Shown here one piece after another: positions 1-36,639 of a DNA stretch of 64,000 bases. Location of the stretch: assembly GCA_964566795.1 (NCBI GenBank), contig CAZMIU010000001.1:479090-543089 (forward strand). Reading direction: 5' to 3'. The position numbers were made by a program, and so were the translations under genes. Every line of letters begins with the position of its first letter. Position 1 is the first letter of the stretch. The DNA is from an uncultured Candidatus Saccharibacteria bacterium (GTDB taxonomy: Bacteria > Patescibacteriota > Minisyncoccia > Phycocordibacterales > SBAW01). Under the pieces are notes generated by a model. It ran no database searches, was not told the origin of the DNA, and was given only the letters and a program-made list of their open reading frames with translations.

Positions 1-678
1 GTCTACCCTAGCGTAGAGCTCCCCCATGACTGGAAGAGCATAGGCAAAGAGGTGCAGCTCGAGGCAGCCGAGCCCGCGACCCAGGAGGAGGTCGAGAAGA
101 CCTTGGAGGATTTGCGCCAGAGCAGAAGGGCACCTTCTGCAGAGGGTGCAGAAGGTGCCCTTCCGGATATAAACGATGAGTTTGCCAAGAGCCTAGGCGC
201 ATTTGAGAACGTAGCTTCACTGCGCGAGCAGATCTCCAAGGGCATTGGCGATGAGAAGGCCAGGCAGGCACGCGACAAGCGCCGCAGCAAGATAATCGAG
301 GCTCTGCTTGAGAAGTCGGCTCTCGAGGTCCCTCCCATATTTATCGAAAGCGAGCTGCAGAAGATCATGGCACAAATGAGCGAGGATATCGGCCGCCTGG
401 GCATGAGCATGGACGACTACCTTAAGCGCATGCAAAAGACCGAGGACGATATTAAAAACGAGTTCCGCGACCAGGCACGCAAGCGCGCCAAGCTCCAGCT
501 CTTGTTAAACAAAATTGCCGAGGAGGAAAAGGTGGTCGCGAGTGAGGAGGCCGTGGAGGGCGAGATTAAGCACGCGCTCGAGCACTTCCCCGATGCCAAG
601 CCCGACCTGGTGCGCATCCACATAGAGACGGTCCTGCGCAACGAGCAGGTGCTCAAACTGCTCGAAGAAAGCAAGTAA
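1..678 (+). CDS. tig: trigger factor, C-terminal portion (5' end cut by window edge)
   Basis: Frame is open to base 1. C-terminal trigger-factor-like sequence. Directly upstream of clpP, as in tig-clpP operons. Confidence 0.8.
   Translation, partial: VYPSVELPHDWKSIGKEVQLEAAEPATQEEVEKTLEDLRQSRRAPSAEGAEGALPDINDEFAKSLGAFENVASLREQISKGIGDEKARQARDKRRSKIIEALLEKSALEVPPIFIESELQKIMAQMSEDIGRLGMSMDDYLKRMQKTEDDIKNEFRDQARKRAKLQLLLNKIAEEEKVVASEEAVEGEIKHALEHFPDAKPDLVRIHIETVLRNEQVLKLLEESK
124..163. repeat. Palindromic element copy 1: 17-nt inverted arms gaagggcaccttctgca / tgcagaaggtgcccttc with a 5-nt spacer, inside tig
   Basis: Seen directly in the sequence. The same arms recur at 25750..25787. Confidence 0.7.
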
Positions 679-8240: not shown

Positions 8241-8648
8241 TTACAATATCATGTTTTCTAGGATTTCCACCCTAGCCCGACGGGTTATAAAGTCTAGATA
8301 TACACAGGCCACGTCTATCTGCCAGTCGGTCGTCTGGGCGACCTTATGGTCTATAAGATAGGTCTGTATAGCCCTATGGAGCCGCTTGAGCTTAGCCGGA
8401 TGGACGTTATCCTCTGGCCTATAGGCAGTTACACGTGAATCCCCTACCCCACTATCCCCTCTAGACGTATCACGTGAAACTGTCTTCACTTCCACAAAAT
8501 AAAGCTTTGACTCCTTTTTAGCCACAATATCTATCTCGCCCCAAGGTTTGAGGTAATTACGCTCAAGGACGCTAAATCCCCTGCCCTTTAGGTATTCACA
8601 GGCTACTTCCTCCCCCGTATCTCCTATAGTCCTCTTGGCTGTTTTCAT
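8241..8648 (-). CDS. yraN: YraN-family (UPF0102) endonuclease
   Basis: GEEVACEYLKGRGFSVLERNYLKPWGEIDIVAKK...FVEVKT matches UPF0102. The internal Met is used; the N-terminal ORF extension is not credible. Confidence 0.75.
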   Translation of the reverse strand: MKTAKRTIGDTGEEVACEYLKGRGFSVLERNYLKPWGEIDIVAKKESKLYFVEVKTVSRDTSRGDSGVGDSRVTAYRPEDNVHPAKLKRLHRAIQTYLIDHKVAQTTDWQIDVACVYLDFITRRARVEILENMIL

Positions 8649-8904
8649 GTGAAATGTTTCATAAGAAACGTATATAGGCCCTAAAAGCCGTCTTTTATGT
8701 CCCCATGTCCCCAAGTTTATCCACAGATATCCCCAGAAAGGTTGAAGGATAAGGGTTTCTAATGCCCTAGGGCTAGCTGTCGTTTTAAAGTCCTTGTGGG
8801 ATAAGGATTTTACTAACCATACTGCGGCTATGCCTAGGATGCCTAGGCATAGCCGCACGTCGTCACAACTATGTAAAAGCTAGCTTTTACTAGCTTGCTG
8901 CTAG

Positions 8905-8974
8905 TGCGGTTAGGGAGAATCGAACTCCCGTCTCGTCCTTGGCAAGGACGCGTTCTACCACTAAACCATAACCG
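8905..8974 (-). tRNA. tRNA-Gly (anticodon GCC)
   Basis: Reverse complement gcggttatggtttagtggtagaacgcgtccttgccaaggacg...ttcgattc...: anticodon stem cgtcc/ggacg, loop ttgccaa. Confidence 0.75.
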
Positions 8975-9022
8975 CTTCGTGAACGACTATAGCATGGATT
9001 TCCTGCTAAGATAAAGCCGTGC

Positions 9023-23589: not shown

Positions 23590-25488
23590 ATGAACCCGCA
23601 TGCTGGATTAAACACTGCACAACAGGATGCGACTAAATCAATACATGGACCACTGTTGGTGCTGGCTGGGGCCGGCGCAGGCAAGACCAAGGTCATTGCC
23701 CACCGGATTTTGGAGATTGTAAGGCAGGGGGCGGCCCCGCAAGAGGTTCTGGCTATCACCTTTACCAACAAAGCGGCGGGGGAAATGCGCGAGAGGGTGG
23801 TCGGGCTCCTCAAAGAGCACGGTCATGGGGGCTCCGGAGCGCCATTTGTATCCACCTTTCACTCCCTGGGACTCTCTATTATTAAGGAGCATGCCAAGCT
23901 CCTCGGGTACAGGCGCGCGCCGGCTATATATGACCGGGCCGACTGCTTGAGCGAGATTAAGGCAGCGCTCAAGGCCATAGGCGAGGTTGAGTTTGAGCCC
24001 CGGATGGTCCTGGGGGCAATCTCGCGCGCCAAAGGCGACGGCCTTACACTCGGGGCCTACAGCGAGCGGGCGAGCAACTTTAGAGAGCGAGCTATTGCAA
24101 CCGCCTGGAACCTCTACGAGCAGGCGCTAAAAAAGGATGGCGCTGTAGACTTTGACGACCTTTTGCTTAAGGCGGTCGAACTGCTCACACAACACCCAGA
24201 GATCCGCGCTGCCTACCACAAGCGCTGGCGCTATGTACATATAGATGAGTATCAGGACACCAATATTATCCAGGACCGCTTGGCCGACTTGTTGGTAGGG
24301 CCGGAGCGCAACATCTGTGTGGTGGGCGACCCCGACCAGACCATTTATGGATGGCGCGGTGCCAAGATAGAAAATATTTTGCACTTTGAGCGAAAATATA
24401 AAGACGCGAAGGTAGTGACCTTGGAGGAAAACTACCGCTCGAGCAAAAATATTTTGGACGCGGCAAATAATCTTATTGCCAACAACCCAAACCGCCCCGA
24501 AAAAAACCTCAGCACATCGCGCGGACCGGGAGAGCAGCTCTCCTTATATATGGCAGGAGACGGGGGAGACGAGGCACTGTTTGTGGCACGAAAAATTGGC
24601 GAGCTCAGAGACGAGGGGGTATCGTGCGAGAACATTGCGGTGCTGTACCGCGCCAACTTCCAGTCGCGCGCCATAGAGGAGAAGTTGCTCGACAACTCTA
24701 TCCCGTATCAAGTGCTTGGCACGCGCTTTTTTGAGCGCAAGGAAGTTAAGGATGTGTTGTCATTTATACGCGCCGCTACCAGTGAGACTCCGGCCGACCT
24801 GGGCCGCGTTATAGACACCATGCCGGGTATGGGCAAGGTGACCAAGCTCAAGATTTTGTCGGGCCAAGAGTCGGCGCTGCCGGCCAAAATGCGTGAGCGT
24901 GTGTCTGGTATGCGTGCTCTGCTTAAAAAAATACAGACAAGCACGGACACCATGCCGCCATCGCAGCTGGTGCGGATGGCGGTCGTTGATAGTGGGATTG
25001 AAAAGACTCTCAAAGAGGACAAACTCGAGGGCGGCGAGCGCCTGGAGAACCTGGCCGAGCTGGTCTCCTTGGCATCGCGCTACGACAAACTCCCGCCGCC
25101 GCAGGGATTGGAGATGTTTTTGGAGAGCGCCGCACTTGCGAGCGACCAGGACGAGATTAAAGATACCGAGAGTAAAGTGCGTCTTATGACCGTGCACGCG
25201 GCCAAGGGGCTCGAGTACGCATATGTGTTTATTGTGGGGCTTGAGGAAGGGCTCTTCCCGTACTCACGCGAGGATGATGCAAAAAACAGCATCGAGGAGG
25301 AGCGCCGGCTTATGTATGTCGCCCTTACCCGTGCCAAGAAAAAGCTCTATCTCTCATTTGCTATGATGCGCACGGTGTTTGGCAACCTCGACATGCGCCA
25401 AGCCTCGTCATTTTTGGAGGAATTGCCGGGTGGGCTTATACTCGCCGAGACCCCGGAGCGGCTGGGCAAAACAATATACTTAGACTGA
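23590..25488 (+). CDS. pcrA: ATP-dependent DNA helicase UvrD/PcrA family (short, 632 aa)
   Basis: Superfamily-1 helicase motifs (AGAGAGKT, DEYQDTN, YRS, VHAAKGLEY). Confidence 0.9.
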   Translation: MNPHAGLNTAQQDATKSIHGPLLVLAGAGAGKTKVIAHRILEIVRQGAAPQEVLAITFTNKAAGEMRERVVGLLKEHGHGGSGAPFVSTFHSLGLSIIKEHAKLLGYRRAPAIYDRADCLSEIKAALKAIGEVEFEPRMVLGAISRAKGDGLTLGAYSERASNFRERAIATAWNLYEQALKKDGAVDFDDLLLKAVELLTQHPEIRAAYHKRWRYVHIDEYQDTNIIQDRLADLLVGPERNICVVGDPDQTIYGWRGAKIENILHFERKYKDAKVVTLEENYRSSKNILDAANNLIANNPNRPEKNLSTSRGPGEQLSLYMAGDGGDEALFVARKIGELRDEGVSCENIAVLYRANFQSRAIEEKLLDNSIPYQVLGTRFFERKEVKDVLSFIRAATSETPADLGRVIDTMPGMGKVTKLKILSGQESALPAKMRERVSGMRALLKKIQTSTDTMPPSQLVRMAVVDSGIEKTLKEDKLEGGERLENLAELVSLASRYDKLPPPQGLEMFLESAALASDQDEIKDTESKVRLMTVHAAKGLEYAYVFIVGLEEGLFPYSREDDAKNSIEEERRLMYVALTRAKKKLYLSFAMMRTVFGNLDMRQASSFLEELPGGLILAETPERLGKTIYLD

Positions 25489-26216
25489 TGCTTAAGAAGA
25501 AATCACTCGGGCAGCATTTTCTGAATAATAAGAGCCACCTTAACGCGGTGGCTGATGCTGCGGATATCAAAGCGGGGGAGACCGTGATAGAGATTGGCCC
25601 GGGCGAGGGCGCGCTTACAGCGGTGCTCCTGGAGAGGGGAGCCAGCGTGATAGCACTGGAGAAAGACGCGCGGCTTATAGATGTGCTCAAGGAAAAATTT
25701 AGGGGCCAGGACTTTGAGGTCATAGAGGGCGATGCGCTGGATTTCGATACAGAAGGGCACCTTCTGCATGCAGAAGGTGCCCTTCTGTCATACAAAGTGG
25801 TGGGTAATGTGCCGTACTACATTACCGGTGCTTTGTTTAAAAAGTTTTTAAGCGGCACAAAGCAACCCTCTACACTCGTATTTTTAGTGCAAAAGGAGGT
25901 CGCTGAGCGCATCGCCAAAGAAAAGAAAGAGTCCATACTCTCGCTGTCTGTTAAAGCGTACGGGCATCCGAAGTATATAAAGACAGTCCCGGCGGGAGCG
26001 TTTGTACCGCCGCCCAAGGTAGACTCGGCCATACTTCTTGTCTCTGATATCTCCCGCAAAAACTTTAAAAACAAAAAACACGAGGAGACCTTTTTCGAGC
26101 TCATTAAAAAAGCATTCGGCCAGAAGCGCAAAATGCTGCGCGCCACGATAGGTATTGACTCGAGCAAAAGGCCAGAAGACCTCTCACTCAGTGAGTGGCT
26201 CAAACTTTCTTTATAA
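25488..26216 (+). CDS. rsmA: 16S rRNA (adenine1518/1519-N6)-dimethyltransferase
   Basis: [18 protein letters not shown] and NVPYYIT motifs. ATGA overlap with the upstream gene's stop. Confidence 0.9.
25750..25787. repeat. Palindromic element copy 2: perfect 38-nt palindrome cagaagggcaccttctgcatgcagaaggtgcccttctg inside rsmA
   Basis: Seen in sequence. Shares its 17-nt arms with the copy at 124..163. In-frame, encoding [13 protein letters not shown]. Confidence 0.7.
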
Positions 26217-33703: not shown

Positions 33704-34156
33704 ATGGCTCAGTACCAAGTACCCCAATTTATCGAGGTTGAGGACAAGATCTTCGGACCTCTGACCATCAAGCAGTTTGTCTACCTCGCCGGGGCAGGGG
33801 GGCTCGCGCTTATCTGCTTTACCTTGCTACCACTCTTCCTTGCATTGCCGCTTGGCGGCTTGGCTGTCGCTATCGGAGCGGCGTTTGCGTTTTATCAGGT
33901 CAACGGCAGGCCGCTTATTGTCGCGGCAGAGCACGGGTTTAGCTACCTCTTGGGCCACAAGCTCTACCTCTGGAAGCAGCGCCAGGCCCCAAACACCCCG
34001 GTTGTCGTAACAAAAGAGGCGACAGCCACTCCGGGCGTTATATCGGTCCCCAGGCTTAGCCAAAGCAGGCTCAAAGACCTGTCGTGGTCACTTAATATCA
34101 AAGACCAGGAACCGCCTCAAGAAGAGGCCAACACGCCGCGCGGCCTGCAACTATAA
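33704..34156 (+). CDS. PrgI/VirB3-like small membrane protein of type IV secretion systems
   Basis: N-terminal IEVEDKIFGPLTIKQFVYL followed by two TM helices. Resembles the PrgI family encoded just upstream of VirB4 in Gram-positive T4SS. Confidence 0.65.
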   Translation: MAQYQVPQFIEVEDKIFGPLTIKQFVYLAGAGGLALICFTLLPLFLALPLGGLAVAIGAAFAFYQVNGRPLIVAAEHGFSYLLGHKLYLWKQRQAPNTPVVVTKEATATPGVISVPRLSQSRLKDLSWSLNIKDQEPPQEEANTPRGLQL

Positions 34157-34158
34157 CC

Positions 34159-34815
34159 ATGGCATCTACCACCGCATCACAAGCCAAAGCAACACAGGAG
34201 TTCGTACCTATACGGGAGGTACGCAACGGCATCGTGATACTCAAAGACGGGTCACTGCGCGCACTCCTTATGGCCTCGTCCATTAACCTGGCACTGAAGT
34301 CTCAGGATGAGCAGCAGGCTATCATTGGGCAGTTTCAAAATTTTCTGAACTCGCTGGAGTTTACGGCGCAGTTTTTTGTCCAGAGCCGCGACCTCGACAT
34401 CCGCCCCTACATCGCACTCCTTGAGGACCGCTACCAAAAGGAGCTTGACGACCTTATGCGTATCCAGATACGCGAGTATATAGCGTTTATCAAGGACTTT
34501 ACCGAACGCGCAAACATCATGAGTAAGAACTTCTTTATCGTGGTGCCTTACGACCCGTCACTCGCGGCCCGCGGCGGGGGACTGAGCTCTATACTCCCGG
34601 GCTCCGGAGCAACCGGCGCCACCATGACAGACGAGCAGTTCGAGCAGTACCGCACACAGCTTGAGCAGCGCGTCTCAGTCATCGAGCAGGGGTTGGTGCG
34701 CACAGGCGTGCGCATTGTGCAGTTGGGCACCGAGGAGGTCATTGAGCTCTTCTACAAGCTCTTTAATCCGGGCGAGCTTGAAAAGCCTCTCCAGGTACAG
34801 CAGCTTAAGCAGTAG
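34159..34815 (+). CDS. VirB4/TrsE-like T4SS ATPase, N-terminal fragment (ends at in-frame TAG)
   Basis: CagE/TrbE/VirB4 N-domain similarity (GIVILKDGSLRALLMASSINLALKSQDEQQ). Same reading frame as 34825..36639, separated only by TAG at 34813..34815. Confidence 0.7.
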   Translation: MASTTASQAKATQEFVPIREVRNGIVILKDGSLRALLMASSINLALKSQDEQQAIIGQFQNFLNSLEFTAQFFVQSRDLDIRPYIALLEDRYQKELDDLMRIQIREYIAFIKDFTERANIMSKNFFIVVPYDPSLAARGGGLSSILPGSGATGATMTDEQFEQYRTQLEQRVSVIEQGLVRTGVRIVQLGTEEVIELFYKLFNPGELEKPLQVQQLKQ

Positions 34816-34824
34816 TATACGCAT

Positions 34825-36639
34825 ATGGCACTCCTCGACTTCCTTACATCCAAAAAGTCTCCCGCAAGCGCACCGGTGGCGCCGATTTTGCCCCAAGAGA
34901 TTTACAAGCAGGGCGTGCTTGAGCTCCAGGATGTTATCGCGCCGTCGGCGCTCAAGATAACGCCGCGCGAGATTAACCTGGGCGACAAGATAGCGCGCAC
35001 ATTCTTTGTCATGTCGTATCCGCGTATCCTCACAGACTCGTGGTTTTCGCCCATCATAAACCTCGACCGTGTGCTCGACATATCGGTATTTATCCACCCG
35101 ATAGACTCGGCAGACATACTCAAAAAGTTCCAAAAGAAGGTAGCCGAGGTCCAGAGCCAGATTATGGCAAGAGAGGAGAAGGGGCTCGTGCGCGACCCGG
35201 TGCTCGATACCGCCTACCGCGATCTTGAGGACCTGCGCGACCAGCTGCAGCAGGCCCAGGAAAAGCTCTTTGATGTGGGCGTCTATATAACCATTTATGG
35301 CGCCTCGGTAGAGGAGCTTGATAAAGCCGAGAGCGAGATTAAGTCCATGCTCGAGTCGAGGCTTGTGTATGTAAAACCGGCGCTCTTCCAGCAGGAGCAG
35401 GGATTCCGCTCTGTGCTGCCGTTGGGCCACGATGAGCTCAGCGTGCTCTCCAAACTCAACTCCTCCCCGCTGTCCTCCATATTCCCGTTTGTGTCCTTTG
35501 ACCTTACCTCTGACAAAGGCATTCTCTACGGCGTGAACCGACACAATGCCTCTTTGGTGCTGTTTGACCGCTTTTCGCTTGAGAACTACAACTCGGTGGT
35601 GTTTGCCAAGTCGGGCTCCGGCAAAAGCTACGCCACCAAGCTCGAGATTTTGCGCACGCTCATGTTTGATACGGAGGTTATTGTGATAGATCCGGAGCGC
35701 GAGTACGAGTTTCTGAGTCAGGCTGTGGGTGGGCGCTACTTTAATATCTCCCTTAACTCCGAGCACCACATAAACCCGTTTGACCTGGCGCCGCCGCGCG
35801 AGGATGAGTCGTCGGCCGATGTGCTGCGCTCCAACATCGTGGCGCTTGTGGGGATGTTCCGCATTATGCTCGGGGGGCTGTCCCCGGAGGAGGATGCCAT
35901 TATAGACAAGGCTATTACCGAGACCTACGCGCTTAAGGATATAACCATAGACTCAAACTTTGCCGAGATTGAGCCGCCGCTCCTGTCGGACTTCGAGCTG
36001 GTGCTCTCGGGCATGCAGGGCTCGGAGTCATTGGTGCAGCGCTTAAGCAAGTACACCAAGGGTACCTGGGCCGGGTTTATCAACCAACCGACCAACGTCG
36101 ACCTTAACAAAAAGTTTGTCGTGTTCTCGGTGCGCGACATGGAGGACGACCTCAAGCCCGTGGCGATGTACCTCATTACGCACTATATATGGAATGCGGT
36201 GCGCAAAACCCTCAAAAAGCGCCTACTGGTCATAGACGAGGCCTGGTGGATGATGAAAAGCGAGGACACGGCCTCCTTCCTCTACGGCATGGCCAAGCGC
36301 GGCCGCAAGTACTACCTGGGGCTTGCGACCATTACCCAGGACGTGGATGACTTCCTCAAGTCGCCCTACGGATTGCCCATGATAACCAACTCCTCCATCC
36401 AGCTCTTGCTCAAGCAGTCGCCCACCACCATAGACACGCTGCAAAAGACCTTTAACCTCTCAGAAGAGGAAAAATACCTGCTACTGGAGTCGGATGTGGG
36501 GGAGGGGATATTCTTTGCGGGCCTCAAGCACGTGGCTATTAAGGTGATAGCCTCATACACCGAGGACCAGATTATCACCTCCGACCCGTCTCAGGTGTTG
36601 GCATTGCGCAAGCAGCGCGCAGAAGCGGCGGTACAATAG
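34825..36639 (+). CDS. VirB4/TrsE-like T4SS ATPase, C-terminal ATPase part
   Basis: Walker A GSGKS, Walker B LLVIDEAW, VirB4 C-terminal motifs. No SD in front of its ATG. Confidence 0.8.
   Translation: MALLDFLTSKKSPASAPVAPILPQEIYKQGVLELQDVIAPSALKITPREINLGDKIARTFFVMSYPRILTDSWFSPIINLDRVLDISVFIHPIDSADILKKFQKKVAEVQSQIMAREEKGLVRDPVLDTAYRDLEDLRDQLQQAQEKLFDVGVYITIYGASVEELDKAESEIKSMLESRLVYVKPALFQQEQGFRSVLPLGHDELSVLSKLNSSPLSSIFPFVSFDLTSDKGILYGVNRHNASLVLFDRFSLENYNSVVFAKSGSGKSYATKLEILRTLMFDTEVIVIDPEREYEFLSQAVGGRYFNISLNSEHHINPFDLAPPREDESSADVLRSNIVALVGMFRIMLGGLSPEEDAIIDKAITETYALKDITIDSNFAEIEPPLLSDFELVLSGMQGSESLVQRLSKYTKGTWAGFINQPTNVDLNKKFVVFSVRDMEDDLKPVAMYLITHYIWNAVRKTLKKRLLVIDEAWWMMKSEDTASFLYGMAKRGRKYYLGLATITQDVDDFLKSPYGLPMITNSSIQLLLKQSPTTIDTLQKTFNLSEEEKYLLLESDVGEGIFFAGLKHVAIKVIASYTEDQIITSDPSQVLALRKQRAEAAVQ

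Follow-up and report, generated by a model that had tools for sequence, protein, structure and literature searches.

Two in-frame palindromes within tig and rsmA

The 64-kb stretch of DNA analysed here (the window) opens within the 3' part of tig, which encodes trigger factor, and further downstream carries rsmA/ksgA, which encodes the 16S rRNA dimethyladenosine transferase; each of the two genes contains a short palindromic element (Table 1), and both open reading frames stay in-frame on either side of it. The PPIase domain is missing from the full-length Tig protein (P0241), whose only domains are Trigger_N and Trigger_C, and the tig element is positioned in the linker where E. coli Tig has its PPIase domain. 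The rsmA element is located in a hypervariable loop between the GDALxF(D/E) and YKVVGNVPY segments.

The initial annotation had described the tig copy as a 17-nt inverted repeat with a 5-nt spacer that leaves the frame unbroken, and this description holds: the copy (123-165) comprises perfect 17-nt arms separated by GAGGG, with frame 1 open throughout. The left arm can be extended to 19 nt (123-141), and the matching extension of the right arm contains one mismatch (CCTTCCG). The encoded peptide is RRAPSAEGAEGAL, of which SAEGAEGALP, originally given as the product of the element, constitutes the 3' part only. The rsmA copy had been reported as a perfect 38-nt palindrome at 25750..25787; it is indeed perfect, but its actual length is 40 nt (25749-25788), with the doublet proper occupying 25750-25787 at zero spacer. 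Each palindrome consists of two inverted copies of CAGAAGG-GCA-CCTTCTG(CA).

The 17-nt arm GAAGGGCACCTTCTGCA has four exact matches in the 64-kb window against 0.01 expected, and none of 100 dinucleotide shuffles (0/100) reached four. Folded as single-stranded DNA, the tig and rsmA doublets yielded -21.9 and -21.8 kcal/mol, respectively (z = -8.6 and -8.9). No further unit copies above chance were detected in the 64-kb window, even at 3 mismatches, and a singleton palindrome at 8823-8857 was placed outside the unit family. In Rfam 15, no family reached its gathering score and the sub-threshold matches were all to hairpin models of eukaryotic miRNAs and snoRNAs, so that a known RNA family was ruled out as the identity of the elements. 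With regard to viral origin, no exact 19-mer match was found in IMG/VR.

Table 1. Host genes and candidate REP units in the window, by window position
Feature	Position	Strand	Description
tig (trigger factor), 3' part	1..678	+	Host gene 1; frame 1, open at the window's 5' end, stop 676-678
Left unit, tig doublet (CAGAAGGGCACCTTCTGCA)	123..141		7-bp stem / GCA-loop mini-hairpin; read (S)RRAPSA
Spacer GAGGG, tig doublet	142..146		Variable part: GAAGG in L046, GAGGG in L048, CCCGA in L010
Right unit, tig doublet (TGCAGAAGGTGCCCTTCCG)	147..165		Inverted orientation; read AEGAL(P); one T>C vs consensus
rsmA/ksgA (16S rRNA dimethyladenosine transferase)	25488..26216	+	Host gene 2
Left unit, rsmA doublet	25750..25768		Read (T)EGHLLH
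Right unit, rsmA doublet	25769..25787		Zero spacer; read AEGALL
17-nt arm GAAGGGCACCTTCTGCA, match 1	125-141	+	
17-nt arm GAAGGGCACCTTCTGCA, match 2	147-163	-	
17-nt arm GAAGGGCACCTTCTGCA, match 3	25752-25768	+	
17-nt arm GAAGGGCACCTTCTGCA, match 4	25769-25785	-	
Unit hairpin as single-stranded sequence			TGCAGAAGGGCACCTTCTGCA

The repeat unit and its distribution

Comparison of the copies defined the repeated unit as a mini-palindrome of ~19-21 nt, TG-CAGAAGG-GCA-CCTTCTG-CA, with a stem of 7-9 bp and a 3-nt centre that sets its orientation, often extended to TGCAGAAGG-GCA-CCTTCTGCA. Two such hairpin units, inverted and 0-11 nt apart, make up a doublet element of ~38-49 nt. The prediction that the motif would occur beyond the two window sites was borne out: a strict search for the doublet pattern identified another 8 copies, spread over 4 genome assemblies besides that of the window, among them a Candidatus Paceibacterota MAG that holds 4 of those doublets, one at the tig site, and a search with the 19-mer arm identified 31 metagenome loci. 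Across these loci, many of them on Paceibacterota contigs, the units are arranged as solo copies, inverted doublets, a direct doublet and a triplet, with inverted doublets present at both window sites and at least 12 others. Single-unit matches on GC-rich contigs (L013, L022/L032, L034, L040, L043), which may reflect chance or unrelated organisms, were left out of all conclusions. One copy (L006) is bordered by A- and T-runs, resembling a bidirectional terminator.

A position count over 65 distinct units confined the conservation to the 17-21-nt palindrome and its TG/CA stem extensions, and neither a GTAG nor a CGTC tag was present in these units. An identical 43-mer doublet with the spacer TCAGA was found in or beside rsmH, miaA and recR, and the recurrence of one spacer in these contexts suggests that the whole doublet is the copied unit, as has been proposed for REPINs (PMC3116915, PMC3337134). 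No target-site duplication was found in the flanks of at least 15 copies, which fits a Y1 mechanism; the combination of terminal inverted repeats and target-site duplication that characterizes MITEs was accordingly not found at these copies. The density is low, at 4 units per 64 kb. The DNA of the source genome that was read comprises the 64 kb plus about 16 kb; the window accounts for 4 units, and the transposase locus described below for another 3 that are intact.

The unit borders and enters a transposase gene

In five cases (L019, L021, L035, L042 and L044/L045), units lie within ~3-30 nt of both the start and the stop of an ORF of ~215-240 aa, and in the flanked loci one further unit lies inside the ORF itself. 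Including L050, six independent loci display this layout. The L050 locus carries a variant unit, TAGAGGG-GCA-CCCTCTT, in which one stem pair is changed on both sides in a compensatory manner (A:T>G:C), and its internal copy co-varies with the flanking ones; the transposase encoded there is 58% identical to the L021 copy. Upstream units differ in orientation (L, L, R, L+R, R), and downstream units are always R. The Logan contigs L044 and L045 encode an identical protein, P0138. Of the intact units there, one precedes the conserved MKNRDYK start by 17 nt, one lies within the ORF, where it is read QKVPFC, and one follows the stop at a distance of 14 nt; a degenerate unit occupies the usual internal position. 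That usual position corresponds to an RRAPSA segment near residue 50, found in 23 of 120 transposase homologs, located in a low-confidence loop of the structure model and absent from the homolog L024. The L044 gene is situated within a type IV pilus cluster.

Several lines of evidence identify the ORF as a Y1/HUH transposase of RAYT type. It matched the Pfam family Y1_Tnp (PF01797) above the cut-off, with E values of 1e-10 to 1e-12, and an alignment of 40 homologs shows no variation in the HxH and Tyr columns. A sequence search against the PDB returned no match; the structure model of P0138 (pLDDT 85), in turn, gave as its best PDB fold match 4ER8_A (E 4e-6, TMt 0.68), a complex of the REP-associated tyrosine transposase of E. 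coli with a REP hairpin, followed by the TnpA structures of ISDra2, IS200 and IS608, which were also significant. JGI labels several of the homologs 'REP element-mobilizing transposase RayT', and the sole NCBIfam match was REP_Tyr_transpos, at 48-53 bits and thus below the cut-off of 80. The protein carries a C-terminal extension of ~60 residues. A tblastn search revealed no transposase gene in the 64-kb window. The source genome nevertheless appears to carry the P0138 gene outside the window, since P0138 is listed with the same longest contig of 590,566 bp as the window's RsmA (P0001) and Tig (P0241).

A gene bordered by hairpins as an IS is bordered by its ends raises the alternative that the units are subterminal hairpins of an autonomous IS200/IS605-type insertion sequence, with the doublets as its PATE/MITE-like miniature derivatives, rather than a domesticated single-copy RAYT with REPINs. 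Such elements share with the present system a Y1 HUH enzyme, single-stranded DNA hairpins, the lack of classical terminal inverted repeats and the lack of target duplication, and membership of Pfam Y1_Tnp, the significant fold matches to IS200/IS605 TnpA structures and the score below the NCBIfam RAYT cut-off all agree with this view. We consider it unlikely, as the best fold match is the RAYT 4ER8 and no IS TnpA, and the upstream unit orientation is variable while the downstream one is fixed. Moreover, the transposases are only 46-65% identical to each other and occur in different neighbourhoods, with none of the near-identical copies expected of an active IS, and no tnpB partner was found among the called genes at the transposase loci examined.

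Probable assignment to a REP-RAYT system

Taken together, we judge that the palindromes of tig and rsmA probably represent REPIN/BIME-like REP doublets belonging to a REP-RAYT system of Paceibacterota (Patescibacteria/CPR), on the grounds that elements of 38-49 nt are built from two ~19-21-nt hairpins and that the same unit flanks a RAYT-type Y1/HUH gene. These grounds also distinguish them from the Rickettsia palindromic element (RPE) type to which the initial annotation had compared them. The elements do resemble RPEs: both are palindromic repeats that have entered housekeeping genes in-frame and apparently leave the host protein functional. Classical RPEs, however, measure 100-150 bp, RPE-1-type elements being much longer than the element described here. 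Sequence and host (a Patescibacteria lineage) are likewise unrelated, there is no CGTC tag, and the present unit flanks a RAYT-type gene. With size, host and transposase link all against it, membership of the RPE family proper was rejected and would be very improbable.

Systems of REP, BIME or REPIN sequences with a RAYT (TnpA-REP) are described for E. coli (4ER8) and for the REPINs of Pseudomonas fluorescens (PMC3116915, PMC3337134, PMC5581495, PMC3479197). Shared with them are the short hairpin unit, the inverted pairs that form a long hairpin, the dispersed copies, the lack of target-site duplications, and a dispersed unit on both sides of a Y1/HUH gene, the encoded protein having the E. 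coli RAYT-REP complex as its best match in structure. The layout of the transposase loci corresponds to the REPtron arrangement, in which a RAYT gene is flanked by REPs (PMC3733652, PMC5581495). There are also differences. REP superfamily members are defined by a conserved tetranucleotide, GTAG or CGTC, that terminates the unit on one side (PMC3733652), and REP-RAYT systems by a flanking 16-mer that is high-copy across the replicon together with a single-copy transposase (PMC5581495). The unit described here has no GTAG tag, its density is low, the spacers are very short (0-11 nt), and most copies are intragenic and translated instead of extragenic, with doublets inside tig, rsmA, rnhB, lepA, miaA, mnmA, recR and an HhH-GPD glycosylase gene. 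In addition, the transposase ORF contains a unit at a fixed position, genomes with transposases of only 46-65% mutual identity have the identical unit, and the extended protein scores below the NCBIfam RAYT cut-off. Low density, the lack of a tag, the NCBIfam score, the lack of a PDB match by sequence, insertions that are not clean and the lack of a transposase gene in the window are among the points that weigh against the assignment.

The phenomenon of intragenic REPs is itself known. Di Nocera et al. (2013, PMC3733652) described GTAG/CGTC REPs within genes, giving 'REP-decorated proteins', in Opitutus terrae, Rickettsia conorii, Thauera and others; many of these proteins are repair and RNA-modification enzymes, they carry ~7-30 extra residues, and some ORFs were hit repeatedly. 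The same study equated the R. conorii elements RPE-4 and RPE-6 with CGTC REPs, for which no dedicated transposase is known (PMC3733652). As in those proteins, REP singles and dimers occur here inside ORFs of known proteins. Unlike them, the units carry no tag, have another sequence and reside in a Patescibacteria host, some solo units replace conserved residues without a change in length (LigA, IscS), and intragenic copies seem to be the rule and not the exception. What appears to be new is thus the untagged unit sequence, the Patescibacteria host, the intragenic predominance and the unit inside the transposase ORF; in the literature searched, no paper linked RAYT or REPIN to Patescibacteria.

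We hold the mechanism with less confidence than the identity, and it is framed by analogy with E. coli TnpA-REP and the IS200/IS605 family. The Y1/HUH enzyme would recognise the unit as a hairpin on single-stranded DNA, and would then cut and rejoin it, so that whole doublets could be copied to new sites without target-site duplication; for P0138-type proteins, binding and cleavage of the REP hairpin are proposed by structural analogy to 4ER8, and mobilisation of the units by this transposase is likewise inferred. In a genome of ~0.6 Mb with scarce intergenic DNA, copies would survive where the frame is preserved, a permissive loop or linker receives them and the encoded peptide, rich in Ala, Gly, Glu and Leu, is harmless; the tig and rsmA copies would be translated as parts of their proteins. 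The best-known REP-RAYT systems are those of Proteobacteria with ample intergenic space. The one proposed here would instead reside in CPR genomes of ~0.6 Mb, its repeats persisting for the most part within essential genes (tig, rsmA, lepA, recR, miaA, mnmA, rnhB), where they are translated into loops rich in Ala, Gly, Glu and Leu. This would account for short, lineage-specific 'insertions' in the housekeeping proteins of CPR bacteria, and calls for caution among annotators and phylogeneticists.

Reading of the units in host proteins

The initial view of a dispersed, presumably mobile palindrome tolerated in-frame in unrelated housekeeping genes gained support from many further sites in related genomes. 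Pfam searches placed in-frame doublets in RNase HII (rnhB), an HhH-GPD glycosylase, the LepA GTPase domain, MnmA, MiaA and RecR, and two further doublets lie at gene edges, one just upstream of an RsmH domain and the other upstream of proS. Three frames are possible, yet every host gene checked with Pfam, and likewise tig and rsmA, reads the 3' unit as AEGAL(L); the 5' unit is read as RRAPSA where the spacer is 5 or 11 nt. Over all loci, the unit nucleotides are read in several frames (RRAPSA, QKGTFC, EGHLL, AEGALL, QKVPFC, CRRCPS) and also occur outside ORFs beside the transposase gene. The constancy of AEGAL(L) despite three possible frames points to selection on the encoded peptide, with Cys/Phe-rich frames having been purged. 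The coding context makes it possible to tell apart selection for the hairpin in the DNA and selection for the peptide, a distinction that intergenic REPs do not allow, and this bears on the role and spread of RAYTs and REPINs.

Comparison with solved structures revealed net insertions of ~11 residues for the lepA doublet and ~14 residues for the recR doublet. The net gain in length falls short of the element's own length in rsmA, tig and lepA, and the rsmA and tig sites are hypervariable linkers. Solo units in LigA (L015, and L028 at the same site) and in IscS (L020) behave differently from the insertions, as these proteins align to solved homologs without gaps and residues of the ENGVFV or NPKVIF type are replaced by AEGALL. 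Simple cut-and-paste insertion does not explain such length-neutral units, which count against the proposed mechanism in its plain form.

Overwriting of conserved segments without an indel raises the possibility that the 21-bp palindrome is a host recognition sequence, either uptake-signal-like or a dimeric-protein site, which was gained by mutation and biased recombination or conversion and has only a secondary link to the transposase. The uptake sequences of Neisseria (DUS) and Haemophilus (USS) are short motifs that enter coding DNA by such length-neutral overwriting and show preferred frames, and their inverted pairs serve as terminators. The present unit is alike in these respects, being a short conserved motif in coding DNA with preferred frames and no change in length. 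Also compatible with such a role are the length-neutrality of the tig copy relative to the closest orthologs that lack it, its constancy at orthologous sites, the L006 copy between A- and T-runs like a bidirectional terminator, the transposase gene of L044 within a type IV pilus cluster and the symmetric stem changes in L050, which suit a dimer-binding site as well as a hairpin. Uptake sequences occur about once per kb, however, and the 4 units in 64 kb fall about tenfold below that density; the unit is, moreover, palindromic and physically tied to a transposase gene. A host sequence would leave unexplained the units at both ends of and inside the Y1 gene in six loci, the lepA and recR doublets are net insertions (about 11 and 14 residues), and identical 43-mers with one spacer in three unrelated genes argue for whole-doublet copying. 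On balance, we regard a host recognition sequence as slightly less likely still than an IS200/IS605-type element, and retain the assignment to REP doublets.

History of the tig and rsmA copies

The tig doublet occupies the same codons in several genomes. The closest (L046) encodes a Tig with 92% identity to that of the window and has the spacer GAAGG; L048 (62-64% identity) shares the window's spacer GAGGG and differs by two changes in the left unit, and L010 and L026 (about 61-63% identity) carry the spacer CCCGA. Unit-encoded peptides were also found at the same Tig position in the homologs P0295, P0296 and P0300. In the right unit, the window, L046 and L048 all carry one derived T>C substitution, which argues that the tig copy was inherited by common descent. 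Between the window and L048, 12 of 13 third codon positions are identical inside the element against 77 of 212 (36%) outside it (binomial ~5e-5, by our own arithmetic), a contrast that indicates constraint at the nucleotide level. From these comparisons, the tig copy is best read as ancient and constrained in its nucleotides. Some distant Tigs thus do carry the same residues, an outcome that the initial annotation had named as contrary to an inserted element; the nucleotides, however, are kept as well, which favours an ancient orthologous REP over a conserved protein motif.

These data also bear on the explanation that no element exists, the repeats being either a coincidental recurrence of the AEGAL protein motif or an artefact of library preparation or assembly, for instance a foldback or an adapter. 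A palindromic linker could in principle yield two copies per window, and AEGAL-like peptides are native to some proteins, as exemplified by 'LAEGEL' in RecR. Coincidence of a protein motif was ruled out by the third-position conservation over the 36% background and by the multiple reading frames, including the copies outside ORFs beside the transposase gene. An adapter or foldback was ruled out by the recurrence of the tig copy at one site, with diverged flanks, in independent NCBI, Logan, ENA and JGI assemblies, and both host genes run in-frame on either side. We give this explanation practically no credence.

Tig orthologs of intermediate identity (70-84%, e.g. L047) contain no unit in their DNA, with 15 of 36 nt identical, and their linker, which reads SRATKDAEGKEVLPE in the L047 type, is nearly equal in length to that of the window; this linker may be either a decayed doublet or a native linker. 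In the closest orthologs without a REP, the linker is shorter by one residue only, and in more distant ones by about 6 residues. The lineage-specific insertion of ~13 residues proposed in the initial annotation holds only loosely for tig.

Persistence of a copy at an orthologous site, and a unit better conserved than the transposases, would be unusual if copies merely decay after insertion. One conceivable reading is that the REP units are not ordinary decaying insertions and are subject to Y1-transposase-driven templated conversion ('refreshing'), or else serve the host as DNA or RNA hairpins within coding sequences. In favour of it are the nucleotide-perfect orthologous tig units, the co-variation of the internal unit in L050, the overwriting in LigA and IscS, the RRAPSA segment near residue 50 in 23/120 homologs and the identity of the unit despite 46-65% identity among the transposases. 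We put it forward tentatively, as possible rather than probable; if true, it would represent a mode of REP propagation or maintenance undescribed for REPIN-RAYT systems.

The rsmA copy, by the same kind of comparison, is most simply viewed as lineage-specific and recent. Unit-encoded peptides were found in 1 of 120 homologs, namely the window's own protein, and the closest RsmA homologs (83-84% identical) are 3-9 residues shorter in the hypervariable loop. The proposed ~13-residue insertion thus survives for rsmA only loosely, as a net gain of ~4-9 residues in that loop.

REP units within host coding sequences

The tig gene at the start of the window (1-678) encodes a trigger factor, whose full-length product is P0241, with the Pfam domains Trigger_N and Trigger_C only, and the PPIase (FKBP) domain is absent, as judged by Pfam domains, from P0241 and from all 120 Tig homologs listed, some of which are named FKBP-type by JGI despite lacking it. 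The REP doublet in tig lies exactly at the linker that is occupied by the PPIase domain in E. coli Tig.

Solo REP units encoding AEGALL were located in ligA and iscS/nifS, in both cases inside the conserved core of the protein, directly after the KxDG adenylation motif in LigA and directly before the H-x-D-A motif in IscS. Alignment to solved homologs revealed no indel at the solo units of either protein, and this length-neutral replacement is unexplained by simple insertion. In both ligA copies all 19 nt of the unit are kept, while third positions in the flanks differ.

Coordinates of REP units, REP doublets and neighbouring features
Feature	Location	Remarks
Solo REP unit, ligA	L015 2198-2214	encodes AEGALL
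Solo REP unit, ligA	L028 577-593	encodes AEGALL
Solo REP unit, iscS/nifS	L020 13731-13747	encodes AEGALL
REP unit, transposase ORF	L044 1604-1620	
REP unit, transposase ORF	L044 1240-1256	
REP unit, transposase ORF	L021 269-285	
REP unit, transposase ORF	L035 5878-5894	
REP unit, transposase ORF	L019 3812-3828	
REP unit, transposase ORF	L042 443-459	
REP unit, transposase ORF	L050 10152-10172	variant sequence
Cluster around transposase gene	L044/L045	T2SSE ATPases, T2SSF, several N_methyl pilins, A24 prepilin peptidase
REP doublet	L005 16-56	arms slightly shortened; JBGTIL010000524.1, label Chitinophagaceae bacterium
REP doublet	L006 5148-5194	intergenic, upstream of proS
Perfect inverted repeat	window 8823-8857	16 nt, 3-nt spacer; TGCGGCTATGCCTAGG-ATG-CCTAGGCATAGCCGCA
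ORFs	window about 33704-36639	33704-34156, 34159-34815, 34825-36639
Gene	L047 7660-8211	Pfam labels PaaX_M and weak CRISPR_Cas2

The transposase gene and its own REP unit

The transposase ORF bears its own REP unit at a fixed site near residue 50, where the encoded peptide is RRAPSA or RRCPSA. Of 120 transposase homologs 23 have this unit; the homolog at locus L024 is without it. At L050, a transposase locus carrying a variant unit, the internal and flanking units share one and the same variant sequence. In the source genome's transposase gene, the copy near residue 50 has decayed and a second, intact unit is found near residue 183 (QKVPFC). The presence of a unit within the ORF could reflect autoregulation or ongoing homogenisation. 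Two Logan contigs (L044 1-11738 and L045 1-9616) encode a transposase identical to P0138, the Y1/HUH enzyme apparently belonging to the source genome, and there the gene sits within a type IV pilus/T2SS-like cluster.

Other doublets and neighbouring features

In L005 a distance of 15 nt separates the doublet from the end of its contig, which is 3,987 bp long and was binned as Bacteroidota; either the contig could be Patescibacteria DNA placed in the wrong bin, or the doublet could occur across phyla. Because the doublet upstream of proS has a run of A on one side and a run of T on the other (aaaaaaa-doublet-ttttt), its sequence looks like a bidirectional intrinsic terminator.

A further inverted repeat of the window lies at the 5' end of a minus-strand ORF (8241-8858), about 45 nt from a tRNA-Gly (8904-8975); it is a singleton, with no second copy within the window, and was ruled out as a REP unit, being unrelated. 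L047, the contig of a close relative, shows synteny with the tig region of the window, and its PaaX_M/CRISPR_Cas2-labelled gene is missing at the equivalent position in L046. In their order and sizes the three tabulated window ORFs correspond to L002 genes located downstream of rsmA; since these counterparts carry the Pfam labels PrgI, TraC-like and P-loop_TraG, a possible conjugation- or type-IV-secretion-like cluster is suggested near rsmA.
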